From Minisyncoccota bacterium (GTDB lineage: Bacteria > Patescibacteriota > Minisyncoccia > UBA6257 > JAVHQB01), in NCBI GenBank assembly GCA_035404205.1, contig DAONGQ010000003.1, positions 1 through 43,572 of the forward strand: a DNA stretch of 43,572 bases. The letters run 5' to 3'. Positions 3,130-43,572 of the stretch are shown here, one piece after another (positions within the stretch are counted from its first letter, which is position 1; each line of letters begins with the position of its first letter). The position numbers were made by a program, and so were the translations under genes. The notes beneath the pieces were generated by a model. It had not been told where the DNA came from. It was given only the letters and a program-made list of their open reading frames with translations, and ran no database searches.

Positions 3130-5206
3130 ACAATTGCTAAGCAAAGCAACCCGTGCCAACGGCCCAAAAGACAAAAGAAAAATAAATGAAATACTTTTAA
3201 CCATTTTTGTCTTTGCTTTCATTTATATTTTTATCTTCACCGCCATTCCCGCTAAATATCTATTTACCAATACCGATTTGGCCGGAGGTGATACTGGTTC
3301 TCATATCTACATCCCCTGGTATGCTAAAGAGATATTTCCTAAAATAAAATGGTGGTCACCAGATTGGTACAGCGGTTTCCCCTTTCTCTATTTTTATCCC
3401 CCGCTGCTTTATACTGCCACTGTCATGCTTGGTTTTGCGCTCCCATTGGCAATAAGCTTCAAATGGATAACTTTCCTGTCCATTGCCGTTTTTCCTATAG
3501 CTGCTTATCTTTGTTTGAAATTTCTTAAGGTTGATTTCCCCGGACCACAAGCAGGAGCAGCTTTCATTACTCTTTTAATGTTCTTTGAAGGTTTTAATAC
3601 TTATGGCGGAAACTGGCCCAGTACTTTAGCTGGTCAATTTTCCCATACCTTCAGTATTGCCATATTTTTTGTATTCATTGGATTGATGTATAAGGGCATT
3701 AAAGAGAAGCGTTACTTGGTTGCCAACGCTATTTTAGGCGCAGCGGTTATTTTATCCCACCCCATTTCGGGACTTTTTCTTATTGCCCTAGCGCCATTCT
3801 TTCTTTTGATTAATGGCAATTTTAAAGAAAAGCTAAAATATATCTTCTTCACCTATGTAGGCATTTTCCTCTTGTCAGCTTTTTGGACTTTAAGCATGGT
3901 CTGGTACAAGGGCTATTCAGGAACCATGAGTTGGACCAACGAAGTAAAGTGGAGCTTGATTGCCCCCAAACTCTGGTTAGGATGGATTATATTAGCTTCA
4001 CTGGGAATTATATGGCTTTTTATTAAAAAGGATGATCGGATGAGAATTATGTTACCAGTAGCCATTGGTTCAATGCTTCTCTATCTCTTCTTAAATCACA
4101 CCACCGTTTGGAATACTCGTTTTCTTCCTTATTACCTGTTTAGTCTTCTTTTAATGGCTGCCTATGGTTTTAGTCTGATAGGACGAATCAAGCTCTTCAA
4201 AAAGAACTTGTGGCTCCTCGATATTATTCTTATTCTGACTTTAGTCATTACCCTAAATTACACTAAGAAGGAAACTTCTTATACTGCCTCGTGGTTCAAA
4301 TGGAACTATGAAGGCTATCAGGTTAAAGATAATTATCAGGACTTAGACAGCTTATATTATTTCCTAAGAAGCTTGCCGCCCGGACGAGTGATGTGGGAAT
4401 ACAGACCAGAATATGATAAGTATGGCACCCCGCGCGTTTTAGAAACCATTCCTATGCACACTGGCCACCCCACTTTTGAGGGATTGCTCATAGAATCCGG
4501 TTTAACTGGTCCCTTTCACTTCATTAACCAAGCCGAAACTACCAAAAACCCCACCACCGCTATTGCCGGTTTTGAATATCCACCATTTGATTTCACAAAA
4601 GGCATAAAACATTTGCAAGCCTCAGGCGCAGAATATTTTGTTGCCTATACAGAGGAGATTAAAAAGTTAGCCAATGATAATCAAAACCTTACTTTCCTGC
4701 AAAATACCGGCGCTTTTAATATCTACAAGGTAGCTAACGCGCCTCTGGTAGAACCGATTAATAATTTTACCATCAAAACCAAAGCTAAAGACTGGTTAAA
4801 AGAGGATGCCGTTCCTTGGTATAAAAATGGCGATTTAAAAACACCAATTATTTTCACCAGCTCGCAAGAGGAAAATAATATGTGGCAACAATTGCTTTCT
4901 TCGGCTAGACCCCAAGGACAAGCAGCTACTAAGATAGTTGCTACTAATGACTCTTTGAGTTTTGACGCGCCAGTAATAGGTATTCCCTATGTGGTCAAAA
5001 TATCCTATTTTCCCACCTGGAAGGTTAGCGGTGCCAGGGGCCCCTATTTAGTCTCGCCCGCTTATATGGCAGTGATACCCACTCAAGAGCATGTTACTCT
5101 AAAATTTGGTTATGGCCCCATTGATTACATTGGCTATGGCCTTACCCTCCTAGGCGTTCCTTATATATTATTTGCTATTAAAAAAGGCAAAAAGAAAGAT
5201 AATTAA
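3122..5206 (+). CDS. Large polytopic membrane protein, putative GT-C fold extracytoplasmic glycosyltransferase (YfhO / PTPS-related membrane protein-like)
   Basis: 694 aa with many hydrophobic segments in the first ~400 aa and a soluble C-terminal domain. An early-loop motif, GGDTGSHIYIPWY, resembles the GxDxxxH loop of YfhO-type GT-C enzymes. The overlap with the GT2 gene suggests translational coupling. Confidence 0.55.
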   Translation: MFKQLLSKATRANGPKDKRKINEILLTIFVFAFIYIFIFTAIPAKYLFTNTDLAGGDTGSHIYIPWYAKEIFPKIKWWSPDWYSGFPFLYFYPPLLYTATVMLGFALPLAISFKWITFLSIAVFPIAAYLCLKFLKVDFPGPQAGAAFITLLMFFEGFNTYGGNWPSTLAGQFSHTFSIAIFFVFIGLMYKGIKEKRYLVANAILGAAVILSHPISGLFLIALAPFFLLINGNFKEKLKYIFFTYVGIFLLSAFWTLSMVWYKGYSGTMSWTNEVKWSLIAPKLWLGWIILASLGIIWLFIKKDDRMRIMLPVAIGSMLLYLFLNHTTVWNTRFLPYYLFSLLLMAAYGFSLIGRIKLFKKNLWLLDIILILTLVITLNYTKKETSYTASWFKWNYEGYQVKDNYQDLDSLYYFLRSLPPGRVMWEYRPEYDKYGTPRVLETIPMHTGHPTFEGLLIESGLTGPFHFINQAETTKNPTTAIAGFEYPPFDFTKGIKHLQASGAEYFVAYTEEIKKLANDNQNLTFLQNTGAFNIYKVANAPLVEPINNFTIKTKAKDWLKEDAVPWYKNGDLKTPIIFTSSQEENNMWQQLLSSARPQGQAATKIVATNDSLSFDAPVIGIPYVVKISYFPTWKVSGARGPYLVSPAYMAVIPTQEHVTLKFGYGPIDYIGYGLTLLGVPYILFAIKKGKKKDN

Positions 5207-11010: not shown

Positions 11011-11081
11011 TGCGGGATCGTCTAACGGTAGGACATGGGCCTCTGGAGCCTAGTATCTTGGTTCGAATCCAAGTCCCGCAG
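11011..11081 (+). tRNA. tRNA-Gln (anticodon CUG)
   Basis: Cloverleaf readable by eye: acceptor TGCGGGA/TCCCGCA, D arm GTCT..AGGAC, anticodon stem TGGGC/GCCTA with loop CTCTGGA (anticodon CTG at 11043-11045), T arm CTTGG-TTCGAAT-CCAAG, discriminator G. No encoded CCA. Confidence 0.9.
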
Positions 11082-11126
11082 CCTTTTGAGTTCATGGCTT
11101 CAAGCGAATCAAGCAAAAGAGAAAAA

Positions 11127-38498: not shown

Positions 38499-38573
38499 GA
38501 GCTAAGACAATTTAAATTGATTTGTCTTATTATATCAAAACCGCCAGTAAAAACCAACCAATTATAACCAAAC

Positions 38574-38600
38574 AAAAAGCGCGAAGGAATCGCGCTTTTG
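38574..38600 (-). terminator. Intrinsic (bidirectional) terminator downstream of the Lys-rich micro-ORF
   Basis: aaaaa-agcgcga-aggaa-tcgcgct-tttt. On the minus strand the stem is followed by UUUUUGUUU. Confidence 0.7.
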
Positions 38601-38670
38601 TTAGGATTCAATGTTTACAAGAGGAGGTTACTTTCTCTTTCCGAAAATTTAACATCCTCATTTGACAAGA

Positions 38671-38760
38671 CTATTTCTTGCCGTGCTTTTTAGCAGTTTT
38701 CTTTGCTACTTTTTTGGTGGCTTTCTTGGCTACCTTCTTAGTGGCTTTCTTCTTAACCAT
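38671..38760 (-). CDS. Candidate 29-aa Lys-rich micro-protein (MVKKKATKKVAKKATKKVAKKTAKKHGKK)
   Basis: Hand translation; too short for the ORF track. ATG at 38760, TAG at 38671-38673. 15 of 29 residues are Lys, in a KKxx period. A strong terminator lies ~70 nt downstream. No obvious SD. Confidence 0.35.
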   Translation of the reverse strand: MVKKKATKKVAKKATKKVAKKTAKKHGKK

Positions 38761-38938
38761 ATTATGAAGATTTAATTTTGCTTTATCTTTTACCGTGCGA
38801 AAAACTAAATTGTCGACCAAAGAGACCTAATCAATTTATTTTTCACACTTGGAAAATTGTTTTTTTAATTTCAATCTAATCTCCTTAGATAATTTTATTA
38901 CAATCATTTTAAAATTCAAGTCCTCCAGTTTCAATGAC

Positions 38939-39062
38939 AACAATTTTTTCACTTCATTGAAAACTGTTTAATTAAATTCTCTTTCATCTAATTTAATTAT
39001 AACAATTTTTTCACTTCATTGAAAACTGTTTAATTAAATTCTCTTTCATCTAATTTAATTAT
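38939..39062. repeat. Perfect 62-bp tandem duplication (2 copies)
   Basis: 38939-39000 and 39001-39062 are identical: aacaattttttcacttcattgaaaactgtttaattaaattctctttcatctaatttaattat. A degenerate partial copy lies at about 38832-38863. Confidence 0.95.
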
Positions 39063-39182
39063 AGAAGTTTTCAATACAAATGCAAGTGTGAATAACTTTA
39101 AAAAACACAAATTTAAAAAAATCGGGTTAAAAACAAGGAACAAGGAAAAAATTTACAATCAATCTTGTTTTTTATTAACAGA

Positions 39183-40716: not shown

Positions 40717-40935
40717 TTAATCTTTATCCTCGTCATCATCGTTACTATCCTCCTCGTTCTCGGTCTCCCTCGCATCTTCAGGCGCCTCTTCGGTAATAGG
40801 CTCAACTAATTTAAAATCACTTTTTCTTCCTACTTTGCATTCTGGACATGTATAATCCTCTGATAAATCCTCAAATTTTTTCCCTTCTTTATCCTCATCA
40901 TAAACATAACCGCAAATTTGACAGATATATTGCAT
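40717..40935 (-). CDS. Rubredoxin-like CxxC...CxxC protein with an acidic C-terminal tail
   Basis: YICQICGYVYDED...DYTCPECKVGRKSDF matches the rubredoxin knuckles. The tail is EEAPEDARETENEEDSNDDDEDKD. Confidence 0.7.
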   Translation of the reverse strand: MQYICQICGYVYDEDKEGKKFEDLSEDYTCPECKVGRKSDFKLVEPITEEAPEDARETENEEDSNDDDEDKD

Positions 40936-41038
40936 AAAATATATTTTAAATTAATATGCGCTCTGACTCCTTAATTTTAAGATAATAGATTTAAAAAAGC
41001 AATTGTCTTCGTCCTCATTATAGAGTGTTTTTAAAGCA

Positions 41039-41068
41039 TTGACAAATCAAGTATTACCTATTTATAAT
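41039..41068 (+). promoter_or_regulatory. Near-consensus sigma70 promoter
   Basis: TTGACA (41039-41044), 18-nt spacer, TATAAT (41063-41068). Confidence 0.6.
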
Positions 41069-41075
41069 AACTTTG

Positions 41076-41563
41076 TGAATGGGCTTTGATGACAGCTCTC
41101 ATTCACATCCTTTCGAGGTTGAAATAAGGTTGACCTCCCTTGGTCTTTGTACTAGGGAGGAGAATCTTGGTCTCACTTTTGGGTCAGAAGACGGGATGGT
41201 CTTATGTCCCCATTATAGACAAATAAGATCGGCTGGTTTGCTTACAGGCGGATGTCTTCTGCGTTATCGTGGTCTCCAAGCCATTTCCAGACCATGGCAG
41301 ATCTTGTTTCACTGCAAGCAAATACCGACCCTGTTTATCTAGAAGGGGTGACGTTTGATTATCCCGTCTCGTCCCTTGCCCTTTACAATTTAACTTTTGG
41401 TGGCATCCTACTTTTTTGACTTTTTGTACCCCCGTATTTCTTTTTTCTTTTTATTCTCTTTTTCATTTTTACTCATCTTTACCGCATTTTCTTTTCGTTG
41501 TAGCCACCTTGCTCTTTATATTTTCACTCTTTGCCATCTCCTTGTAGATGGTTTTTCTTTTTT
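41076..41563 (+). ncRNA. Candidate novel structured non-coding RNA (~490 nt), family unrecognised
   Basis: Bounded by the promoter above and the terminator at 41534-41563. The 5' ~320 nt are about 46% G+C by hand count, with several 7-9 bp helices. The 3' portion is ~79% pyrimidine. There is no convincing ORF. Confidence 0.4.
41534..41563 (+). terminator. Intrinsic terminator
   Basis: ccatct-ccttgt-agatgg followed by tttttctttttt. Confidence 0.65.
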
Positions 41564-41652
41564 CATATAAAACTGACTTTTAATTTAGGCTCTTTATATT
41601 TTTAAGGAATTTTAAAAGTTCCCGTGCTAAACTGTTCTTACAGCCAAAAAAT

Positions 41653-42705
41653 ATGCAATCTTCAATCACTCCCAAAAAAATAGTCACTATAGGCGGTGGC
41701 ACCGGTAGTTTTATGGTTCTTTCTGGTTTGAAAAAATACAATTTTGACCTCACCGCCATTGTTTCTATGTCTGATGATGGCGGCTCTACTGGTATTTTAA
41801 GAGATGAATTAGGTGTTCTACCGCCAGGAGACTTACGACAGTGTTTGGTGGCCCTTTCAGATTCGCCTGATATTATGCGTAAAATTTTTAATTATCGTTT
41901 CAATAGTGGCAGTTTGGAAGGGCATAATCTTGGAAACTTATTACTTTCGGCTATGGAAAAAATCACTGGCAGCAGCCAGCAAGGGATTAAAGAAATTGGC
42001 ACTATTTTAAAAATTAAGGGACGCGTTTTACCGGTATCGTTAGAATCTAGCAACCTAGAAATTGATCTTAAAAACGGCTTAAAGCTAATTGGCGAAGACA
42101 AAATTAATCACAATTACGCTCTAGACACCATTGGCATAAAAAAAATCTCTCTCAACCCCATACCCACTGCTAATCCGGAAGCTATTCAAGCTATTTTAGA
42201 AGCAGATGTAATTATCATTGGACCGGGAAATCTCTATTGTAGCCTTTTACCCAATCTTTTAGTACCAAAGGTCAGCAATGCTATCTCACAGAGTCATGCT
42301 AAAATTATCTACATAGCCAATCTAGTTAACAAGCGCGGGCATACCAGTAATTTTAGCCTTGATAATTATATTCAATGCCTGCAAAAATATTTGCATGGCA
42401 AAAAAATAGATTTTGTTATTTCTAATGTTCAAAAACCCTCAGCTGCTTTATTAAAAAAATACCAAAAGGAAGGCGATGAGTGGTTAGAAATAAAGGGCGC
42501 GAAAAACGAAAACCAGCCTCCCCGCGTCTCTCCCACCATAGTCCAAGCCAATCTGCTGAAGAACACTCTCTATAAACCTGTCGCCGGGGACCATATTAGC
42601 AACACCCGTTCCCTTATTCGTCATGATAGCGACAAACTCGCTAAACTTATTAATTTGATTGTAGAATGGTCAGATAATCCAAAAATCCTCAAACAAATTC
42701 TCTAG
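41653..42705 (+). CDS. yvcK: YvcK/CofD-family protein (gluconeogenesis factor-like, UPF0052)
   Basis: IVTIGGGTGSFMVLSGLK, MSDDGGSTGILRDELGVLPPGDLRQCLVAL and IIIGPGNLYCSLLPNLL. Confidence 0.85.
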   Translation: MQSSITPKKIVTIGGGTGSFMVLSGLKKYNFDLTAIVSMSDDGGSTGILRDELGVLPPGDLRQCLVALSDSPDIMRKIFNYRFNSGSLEGHNLGNLLLSAMEKITGSSQQGIKEIGTILKIKGRVLPVSLESSNLEIDLKNGLKLIGEDKINHNYALDTIGIKKISLNPIPTANPEAIQAILEADVIIIGPGNLYCSLLPNLLVPKVSNAISQSHAKIIYIANLVNKRGHTSNFSLDNYIQCLQKYLHGKKIDFVISNVQKPSAALLKKYQKEGDEWLEIKGAKNENQPPRVSPTIVQANLLKNTLYKPVAGDHISNTRSLIRHDSDKLAKLINLIVEWSDNPKILKQIL

Positions 42706-43478: not shown

Positions 43479-43501
43479 AAATTATTCCTTTCTTGGCAAA
43501 G

Positions 43502-43572
43502 CTGCGGGACTTGGATTCGGACCAAGATACTGGGCTTCAAAGGCCCATGTCCTACCATTAGACGATCCCGCA
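43502..43572 (-). tRNA. tRNA-Gln (anticodon UUG)
   Basis: The reverse complement reads TGCGGGA TC GTCTAATGGTAGGAC A TGGGC CTTTGAA GCCCA GTAT CTTGG TCCGAAT CCAAG TCCCGCA G. The anticodon is TTG. The gene ends exactly at the window edge. Confidence 0.9.

Follow-up and report, generated by a model that had tools for sequence, protein, structure and literature searches.

The subject of this work is a spacer of 717 bp in a window of 43,572 nt, the whole stretch of DNA analysed here, from contig DAONGQ010000003.1 of a Minisyncoccota bacterium. The spacer is divergent: it separates the rubredoxin-HD-MurB operon, whose flanking gene rubredoxin lies at 40717-40935 on the minus strand, from yvcK, which encodes a CofD/YvcK-family protein and lies at 41653-42705 on the plus strand. 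It is the largest gap in the window. The earlier note on this DNA, made from the sequence alone, had it far larger than the other gaps, which is overstated, as the second one, a stretch of 684 bp without a long open reading frame (ORF), lies at 38499-39182. Inside the spacer we predict an independent gene of a non-coding RNA (ncRNA) of about 485 nt, which extends from about 41075 to about 41560 on the plus strand and has its own promoter and its own terminator. All features of the RNA described below are on the plus strand.

Transcription would start from a sigma-70 consensus promoter, TTGACA and TATAAT separated by 18 nt (41039-41068). It matches the consensus at 12 of 12 positions and is the single perfect match on both strands of the 43.6-kb window, where 0.01 is expected from shuffles; this agrees with the earlier note, which had taken it for the best promoter of the window. 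The perfect promoter occurs once per homologous locus, with position and 18-nt spacer unchanged. The G at 41075, located 7 nt past the -10 box and kept in all seven sequences compared, is the likely start. At the other end, a terminator scan detects an intrinsic terminator, a (G)CCAUCU...AGAUGG(U) hairpin with a U-run (41533-41562), where one had been claimed at 41534-41563. Its hairpin occupies 41533-41552 and is followed by the T-run TTTTTCTTTTT. The terminator is present in all homologues, including the partial one (L006), with 100% of its positions paired, and it varies by U-A/U-G exchanges and by one compensatory change from C-G to U-A. Because the flanking genes diverge, a conserved terminator on the plus strand needs a transcript that starts inside the spacer.

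Two further observations concern the promoter region. The -35 box lies inside a near-palindrome, ATTGACAAAT (41039-41045), and the minus strand reads TTGTCA-17-TATAAT there (41045-41017, 11/12); the -10 box of this minus-strand element is not kept in relatives. Next to it, the 70 nt upstream of the rubredoxin start (40936-41005) are far better conserved among relatives than the RNA itself, and their minus strand reads like a TTGCTT-17-TAAAAT promoter followed by a short leader without a Shine-Dalgarno (SD) sequence.

The homologues come from metagenome-assembled genomes (MAGs) of Paceibacterota and from metagenome contigs. The scan of genome contigs with YvcK gave L001, a Paceibacterota MAG with a 90% identical YvcK and the same gene order, and L002, in which the context is unrelated. 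Searches with YvcK and with the HD protein, together with contig look-ups, gave the syntenic loci L003, L004, L005, L017 and L019 and the partial L006, while L011-L014 and L016 carry a sequence identical to that of L001. The comparison set consists of seven distinct full-length sequences, namely the window, L001, L003, L004, L005, L017 and L019. Most pairs among them are 49-64% identical, and L004 and L017 are 80% identical. In all seven loci the element precedes yvcK and has its orientation, and a profile built from the seven sequences finds a single copy in each locus, with no further copy in the rest of the window.

More distant YvcK homologues (about 55% identical, L007-L010) belong to other operons and an HD homologue with 64% identity (L020) to a different one, and the spacer was not found in any of these places. 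Either the family is narrow or the RNA has moved elsewhere in those genomes. The motif TTGTTCTTTAMAATT-N6-18-GTGGYATC re-found only the L001 species across the metagenome contigs of the Joint Genome Institute; the linker motif TTGTTCTTTAMAATT is too specific as a search key, as L017 and L019 carry CTCTTTAAAAGTT instead. Three pattern matches in viral contigs are all inside phage genes and were rejected as chance. As far as the searches reached, the element appears confined to one narrow Paceibacterota lineage. We also note that several contigs end in or near the spacer: L006:1 is inside the pyrimidine tract described below, and L018:1-83, L025:1-43 and L026:1-106 end 43-106 nt upstream of rubredoxin. 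L025 and L026 thus contribute no sequence of the RNA. The simple repeats of the tract, or strain variation in it, are perhaps the cause of these assembly breaks.

Folded separately, all seven sequences have a common layout: P1, J1/2, P2, P3, a rod closed by P4, a linker, P9, the tract, a U-rich segment and the terminator. The first ~300 nt are a conserved domain, in which the hairpins P1-P3 are followed by P4, closing an irregular rod of 170-240 nt. When the tip of the rod is swapped for GAAA, the trimmed rods (7/7) each fold into a P4-P5-P6-P7 stack. For P4 there is a test in which no structure is fitted: from a plain MAFFT alignment (A4) of the trimmed rods, RNAalifold recovers this helix. 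In the unfitted alignment 95.2% of the P4 cells are canonical and 8 of the 12 pairs are changed on both sides. The covariation score of P4 is 0.58 against 0.30 for shuffled alignments, with 0 of 500 shuffles as high, and in the control in which the partner strand is slid by 1-3 columns only 42-62% remain paired.

MAFFT fails on the inner strands across subgroups, hence the helix strands were curated by hand and given pre-aligned. Of the 59 pairs in the resulting model (P1, P4-P8, P9 and the terminator), 25 have changes on both sides; 95.4% of the cells are canonical, none of 500 shuffles is as high, and the slid controls stay at 37-47%. The result for P4 on the unfitted alignment stands independently of the curated one. 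According to the curated pair table, about 12% of the paired cells are G-U, including a U-G pair of P5 kept in five sequences. These cells would be A-C mismatches on the minus strand, which favours the plus strand, in agreement with the orientation of the promoter and the terminator. The folding energy alone cannot choose the strand, because the values are similar: the plus-strand fold has -139 kcal/mol and z = -4.3, and the minus strand has z = -4.15.

The five helices drawn by the earlier note all pair as it stated. Two of them, 41075-81/41100-06 and 41134-40/41154-60, are P1 and P2 and are conserved in relatives, and the helix 41190-97/41361-68 is the core of P4, conserved with strong covariation. 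The helix 41267-75/41289-97 pairs too, but it is a tip hairpin common only to the window and its closest relative L001. The long-range helix 41185-92/41254-61 is not conserved in L001, hence the P4 pairing that competes with it is the real one. The alternative conformations that had been read from this competition thus fall away, but another conserved pair of alternatives exists, in which GGUGG pairs either locally (P9) or across the tract (P10).

Such comparisons bear directly on the idea that the spacer is a functionless relic, a decayed gene or a remnant of a mobile element, with structure by chance. The narrow distribution, the freely evolving simple-repeat tract and the frequent breaks of public assemblies at this place fit it. 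Nonetheless, seven lineages with spacers of only about 50% identity still have the perfect promoter and the terminator, compensatory changes hold 95% of the 59 pairs, each locus has a single copy without any other being found, and the genomes are small and compact. We find it hard to credit a relic here. Instead, we suggest that the spacer very probably holds a real, independent and structured ncRNA gene, as its predicted signals and fold are found in all seven sequences with compensatory changes.

The apparent lack of coding capacity agrees with the ncRNA gene. Two ORFs are present, the one of 87 aa at 41079-41342 that the earlier note had listed and one of 57 aa at 41397-41570. The 87-aa ORF is missing from relatives. 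It has no counterpart in L001; mismatches between the window and L001 are spread evenly over the codon positions (31/84, 31/85 and 30/86), and the indels are of 4, 2, 4 and 1 nt. Having no codon pattern and indels that are not multiples of three, it was rejected as a gene. Over the tract no ORF is conserved on either strand among relatives. The frame set by GGUGG meets a stop within 6-8 codons in L005, L017 and L019, and a hydrophobic peptide from the tract was rejected. On the minus strand, Lys-rich peptides ('KKVAKK' from AGCCACC) begin at different points and have different lengths, and stops break them in L001, L005 and L006; an antisense peptide of this kind was rejected as well.

It is hence very improbable that the transcript is the messenger of a small protein, be it the 87-aa ORF, a tract-encoded hydrophobic peptide of the type I toxin kind behind a long structured 5' untranslated region, or the Lys-rich peptide of the minus strand. 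For it speak the two ORFs, the recurring 'KKVAKK' and the ORFs of 43-44 aa that gene callers place antisense to the tract in two relatives. Against these stand the broken frames and, for the tract, its composition: stop codons need purines, so ORFs through it are expected from composition alone, and a pyrimidine-only sequence is open in all frames.

The folded domain starts with P1, the 5' hairpin GUGAAUG...CAUUCAC (41075-41106). All seven sequences have this hairpin with different stem sequences; in the five alignable ones 5 of the 7 pairs are changed on both sides, and in most relatives the loop carries a purine-rich motif, YUGAYAGGR. It is followed by J1/2 (41107-41133), seen in alignments and folds, with the conserved motif YCGAGRG...GUG.GAU; in three relatives an extra hairpin, P1b, is inserted here. 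P2 (41134-41160) is found in all seven with variable loops. Its CCUC/GAGG core is invariant, therefore it yields no covariation evidence. The conserved segment UUGGUCUCA comes next together with the small hairpin P3, UGGUC/GGUCA (41167-41186). In P3 the window and L001 differ by changes from G-U to G-C and from U-G to U-A, and the other five sequences have a CAAUR/YRUUG hairpin at this position. UUGGUCUCA and GGUGGUAUCCCACU are signature motifs of the RNA.

The rod of the window (41189-41369) has 181 nt. It is closed by P4, a long-range helix of 12-13 bp between the 5' strand AGACGGGAUGGUC (41189-41201) and the 3' strand GAUUAUCCCGUCU (41357-41369). According to the rod folds and the curated pair table, the 5' strands of the rod (41204-41247) are those of P5 (41204-11), P6 (41216-32) and P7/P8 (41237-47), and the 3' strands (41312-41354) are those of P7/P8 (41312-22), P6 (41325-41) and P5 (41346-54). 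Between them lie an internal loop and the variable distal tip (41248-41311), with the tip hairpin 41269-75/41289-95. The 3' side of the internal loop has a conserved UGUUUCA; GCUGUUUCACUG is kept on the 3' side. The tip differs between subgroups and measures 59-132 nt. Pseudoknots among the P1 loop, J1/2, UUGGUCUCA and the tip loops were sought by eye, and none is consistent across all seven sequences.

The 5' domain also differs in composition from its surroundings. In 41101-41340 the G+C content is 110/240 (46%), whereas neighbouring spacers have 19-29% and the window has 38% on average; our recount reproduces the value of the earlier note and the excess over AT-rich spacers. Recounting confirms likewise the 25 purines among the 120 nt of 41401-41520; nowhere else in the window do pyrimidines, or purines, make up 78% or more of 120 nt.

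Between the rod and this region lies a linker (41370-41398), in which the alignment shows the motif YUCUUUAMAA.UU (CUUUACAAUU at 41381-90). P9 is the conserved hairpin GGUGG-CAUC-CUACU (41399-41412), with the consensus GGUGG-YRUC-CYACU. It is present in all seven sequences, with 97% of its cells paired and a compensatory change from G-C to A-U in L017. The alternative helix, P10, consists of the 5' strand of P9 plus C41404, paired with GCCACC at 41503-08 across the tract (GGUGGY-RCCACC). P10 has C-G, U-A or U-G as its sixth pair and an A-U pair in L004, but in L017 it has an A-C mismatch. Probably both helices form, P9 first in transcription and P10 after the tract has been made. The pyrimidine-rich tract itself (41413-41502) is presumably single-stranded; it is 82% C+U, with 6 G and 10 A in 90 nt, and it contains an 18-nt tandem repeat (41438-80). 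In relatives its length ranges from 28 nt (L004) to about 200 nt (L019), with 79-85% pyrimidine where measured. Thus, its composition and position are kept, and its sequence and length are not. After the tract, the alignment shows the 3' strand of P10, GCCACC, and a conserved U-rich segment (41503-41532), for which the consensus of relatives is CGCUUUUUAGCCACCUUUUUGYUCUUUU.

The earlier note offered two readings of the locus, an undescribed large ncRNA and an unusually long regulatory leader of yvcK. The first is supported by the results above and the second is disfavoured. As a leader or attenuator acting in cis, the RNA would use its 5' domain as a sensor of a ligand or a protein, for instance one linked to the supply of UDP-N-acetylglucosamine (UDP-GlcNAc) and cell-wall precursors. 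The sensing would decide between read-through into yvcK and a stop, either at the terminator or within the C/U-rich tract at a Rho site. Several features fit such a device. In every full-length locus yvcK follows the element and shares its orientation, P9 and P10 give GGUGG two conserved partners, like expression platforms, and the tract, which is unstructured, rich in C/U and poor in G, looks like a Rho loading site. The neighbourhood is, moreover, rich in envelope genes (MurA-like, MreB, MraY/WecA-like, D-Ala-D-Ala carboxypeptidase, MurB, YvcK and PAP2).

However, an extended -10-like element, TGCTAAACT (41625-41633), lies outside the RNA as a boundary marker, 19 nt before the yvcK ATG. It reads TGCTAARMT in relatives and is always 3' of the terminator; TGCTA is invariant in the alignment, including the partial L006, and L017 has TGCTA too. 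This conserved element, found between the terminator and the ATG in every homologue read there, argues for a separate transcription of yvcK and against the RNA being no more than its leader. The terminator is strong and conserved. The stretch between it and yvcK measures anything between about 55 nt and over 200 nt among homologues and holds simple repeats. The perfect-consensus promoter of the RNA is far stronger than the yvcK element, and the 30-200 nt between the folded domain and the terminator are unlike known riboswitch platforms. A conserved anti-terminator pairing with the 5' strand of the terminator was not found, and synteny weighs little in so narrow a clade. We therefore consider an attenuator of yvcK unlikely, both in the version that stops at the terminator and in the version that uses a Rho site. 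As to yvcK itself, the position of TGCTAAACT implies a very short leader without an SD sequence.

The independent RNA matches no known family. We used the 4227 covariance models of Rfam 15 with the gathering threshold as the family criterion, and over the whole window only two tRNA-Gln genes pass it. Over 40900-41700 there are zero matches at E <= 10, and in the six homologous loci no match covers the element on either strand at E <= 5, in accordance with an undescribed ncRNA as proposed by the earlier note. ARAGORN finds no transfer-messenger RNA (tmRNA) in the window. The motifs of RNase P, tmRNA and signal recognition particle (SRP) RNA, which had not been seen by eye, are thus missing from the Rfam 15 and ARAGORN matches likewise. 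RNase P RNA was rejected, as neither RNaseP_bact_a nor RNaseP_bact_b matches at E <= 10 and the motifs GAGGAAAGUCC and ACAGAA...GGCUUA are absent from the seven sequences; tmRNA was rejected on the ARAGORN result and the lack of a match to the Rfam tmRNA model. SRP RNA was rejected as well, with no model match and with rod tips that are variable loops of 13 nt or more and not a GNRA-capped domain IV. A segment of L003, UGUUUACCAG, presumably resembles the E. coli 4.5S RNA, and this resemblance is not conserved across the family.

Among housekeeping RNAs, 6S RNA (RF00013 and relatives) shares with the element an irregular rod of ~180 nt with an internal loop and a strong sigma-70 promoter. Here, in contrast, the rod is internal to an RNA of ~485 nt. 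It is flanked within the unit by 114 nt of conserved sequence on the 5' side and ~190 nt on the 3' side, so the RNA ends form no closing stem. There is no large conserved bubble either, as the internal loop read from the folds is small and inconsistent in size, from ~10x10 nt in the window to ~2x7 in L019, and no Rfam 6S match is found; 6S RNA was rejected on these grounds. A divergent housekeeping RNA would most likely be a 6S-like decoy of RNA polymerase within a longer precursor, and less likely RNase P RNA, SRP RNA or tmRNA. The 181-nt rod closed by P4 has the size of 6S RNA; long and irregular, this hairpin contains a conserved internal loop and stands behind a consensus promoter, and 6S RNAs are poorly conserved in sequence. 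Still, none of the four families is matched even at E <= 10, the loop is not like an open-promoter bubble, conserved structure of ~115 nt precedes the rod and ~190 nt follow it, and P4 pseudoknot sequences, a tRNA-like domain and a GNRA-capped domain IV are all missing. A hidden housekeeping RNA thus seems quite improbable.

T-box leaders have in common with the 3' half that UGGY pairs with an RCCA-containing strand and that there are alternative pairings upstream of a terminator. We also take GGUGGUA(U)C to be like the GGUGGNACC core of the T-box sequence. A T-box was nevertheless rejected. The RCCA partner is internal and covaries with Y and is thus not a tRNA 3' end, leaving only a resemblance of 7-8 nt (GGUGGUA.C). 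No Stem I, specifier loop or further T-box element was recognised, Rfam gives no match at E <= 10, and the downstream yvcK is not related to amino acids. Unlike in T-box leaders, the motif and the terminator are 30-200 nt of pyrimidines apart. Another analogy is that of context. The small RNAs GlmY and GlmZ work with RapZ, of the YvcJ family, in enterobacteria, and they are likewise ncRNAs tied to the yvcJ-yvcK (GlmR)/UDP-GlcNAc module of envelope precursors. They have no similarity in sequence or structure to the RNA described here, which is more than twice as long and whose association is synteny in one narrow clade; no rapZ is seen adjoining it. From this synteny alone, a link to the control of envelope precursors is possible.

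By its kind, the element appears to be an orphan large structured ncRNA, with a length above ~400 nt, its own predicted promoter and terminator, a covarying fold of many helices and no coding capacity. With OLE, ROOL, GOLLD and the raiA motif it shares a size of hundreds of nt, a stand-alone unit, a covarying fold with conserved unpaired nucleotides, a lack of coding capacity and a restricted phylogenetic range. In contrast to them, it has no match to their Rfam models, occurs in Paceibacterota of the Candidate Phyla Radiation (CPR) and not in Firmicutes or phage contexts, is known from seven sequences, and has between its folded domain and its terminator a long tract that is poor in purines and varies in length. 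To our knowledge, no such tract occurs in OLE, ROOL, GOLLD or raiA RNAs, and we know of no bacterial RNA family in which a folded domain is combined with a purine-free tract of variable length bracketed by a helix. Judged by Rfam 15 and general knowledge, the RNA family appears to be undescribed.

We tentatively propose that the RNA, if it is a real gene, acts in trans as a stable, abundant scaffold that binds protein; we would put this somewhat below an even chance. The perfect promoter, the covarying domain of ~300 nt and a helix-bracketed strand without self-pairing point in this direction. The structured domain with its many conserved unpaired motifs would be a specific recognition module. 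The purine-free tract, unable to pair with itself, would offer a flexible, unpaired arm to a protein with affinity for single-stranded RNA, and the choice between P9 and P10 would set whether this arm stays open or is closed into a loop. The candidate partner of the tract is ribosomal protein S1 or the 30S subunit, with Rho, KH-domain and cold-shock proteins as alternatives; the tract keeps its composition, though neither its sequence nor its length, which fits a protein of this sort. S1/30S is the most attractive candidate because the organism hardly uses SD sequences: SD-like motifs (of the GGAG/GAGG type) occur within 25 nt upstream of 4 of the 39 gene starts in the window, and the organism seems to initiate translation almost without SD pairing. 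S1-type recognition of unstructured leaders is established for SD-poor bacteria, and by analogy initiation here is probably by such recognition of unstructured, U/A-rich leaders. Taken as one statement, the gene together with the trans-acting, protein-binding model has slightly better than even odds in our judgement, with the weight on the gene.

A single strand free of purines could also work by base pairing, the tract or the linker pairing in trans with purine-rich segments of mRNAs, as C-rich motifs of the RsaE/RoxS type do. Purine-rich targets would not be scarce, as the coding strands are purine-rich (K/E/N codons), and many short matches exist. However, complementarity to the genes of the window, whether specific or extended, is not above background; the sequence and length of the tract are unconserved, though an interaction of seed and target would need conservation; SD sequences, the usual target, are nearly absent; and a structured domain of ~300 nt is needless for an antisense RNA. 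Such a regulator is improbable in our view. Among its particular forms, an anti-SD sponge was rejected with so few SD-like motifs, and so was an antisense to the small Lys-rich gene at 38671-38820, for which the match is 11 nt and no better than background.

Several points weigh against the picture of an independent gene whose RNA binds a protein in trans. The promoter and the terminator are predictions from sequence. The figure for the curated model leans towards the model, since the alignment was fitted by hand to the structure, and the seven sequences are related and come from one narrow clade, which inflates the covariation counts in comparison with independent events. As to the arm, the tract of L004 has only 28 nt, hence a long arm is not essential, and the purine-poor composition could be a by-product of repeat slippage and not of selection. 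The trans-acting scaffold and the S1 candidate come from composition and context alone.

A few other features of the window and its relatives were observed. The 684-bp stretch at 38499-39182 lies between an HPF-like gene and murB, and large parts of it are 72-86% identical to relatives, more conserved than the spacer of the RNA. It contains a terminator-like hairpin, AAAAGCGCGAAGGAATCGCGCTTTT, near 38575-38600, and its minus strand has a small Lys-rich ORF (38671-38820, ...KKKATKKVAKKATKKVAKKTAKKHGKK) in which a 24-nt repeat structure is seen. Just upstream of murB, at 38939-39063, an AT-rich unit of 62 nt is perfectly duplicated in tandem (2.0 copies, 100% identical). The two tRNA-Gln genes, at 11011-11083 (plus strand) and 43501-43572 (minus strand), have the anticodons CTG and TTG and are near-identical except for positions in the D-loop, anticodon and T-loop; in relatives a tRNA follows the PAP2 gene in the same place. 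In L003, a stretch of ~110 nt downstream of PAP2 (5052-5161, minus strand) gives matches below the gathering threshold to two models of eukaryotic microRNA precursors (45 and 36 bits); we take the stretch to be a long near-perfect hairpin or inverted repeat and not a microRNA.

Last, we consider what the RNA would mean for these organisms. CPR bacteria (Patescibacteria) have tiny genomes with little non-coding DNA, and their regulatory and structural RNAs are almost unknown. By our own estimate, a gene for an RNA of ~485 nt takes ~0.05-0.1% of such a genome, and its retention, together with a perfect promoter and a covarying fold of many helices, suggests that it is probably important for the organism. 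The seven sequences and the helix model are a seed for a covariance model with which CPR genomes and metatranscriptomes may be searched. Large bacterial RNAs with complex folds have repeatedly proved to be ribozymes or cores of unusual particles. It is conceivable, though we think it rather unlikely, that with this RNA a new class of large RNAs with complex folds has its first member, specific to a Paceibacterota lineage and of the rank of OLE, ROOL and GOLLD, and that its ~300-nt domain has a new biochemical task, catalysis or the building of a dedicated RNA-protein or RNA-only particle. If this were true, the arm free of purines would represent a functional module of a new kind, and the RNA may tie into translation that initiates without SD sequences or into the YvcK/MurB control of envelope precursors.

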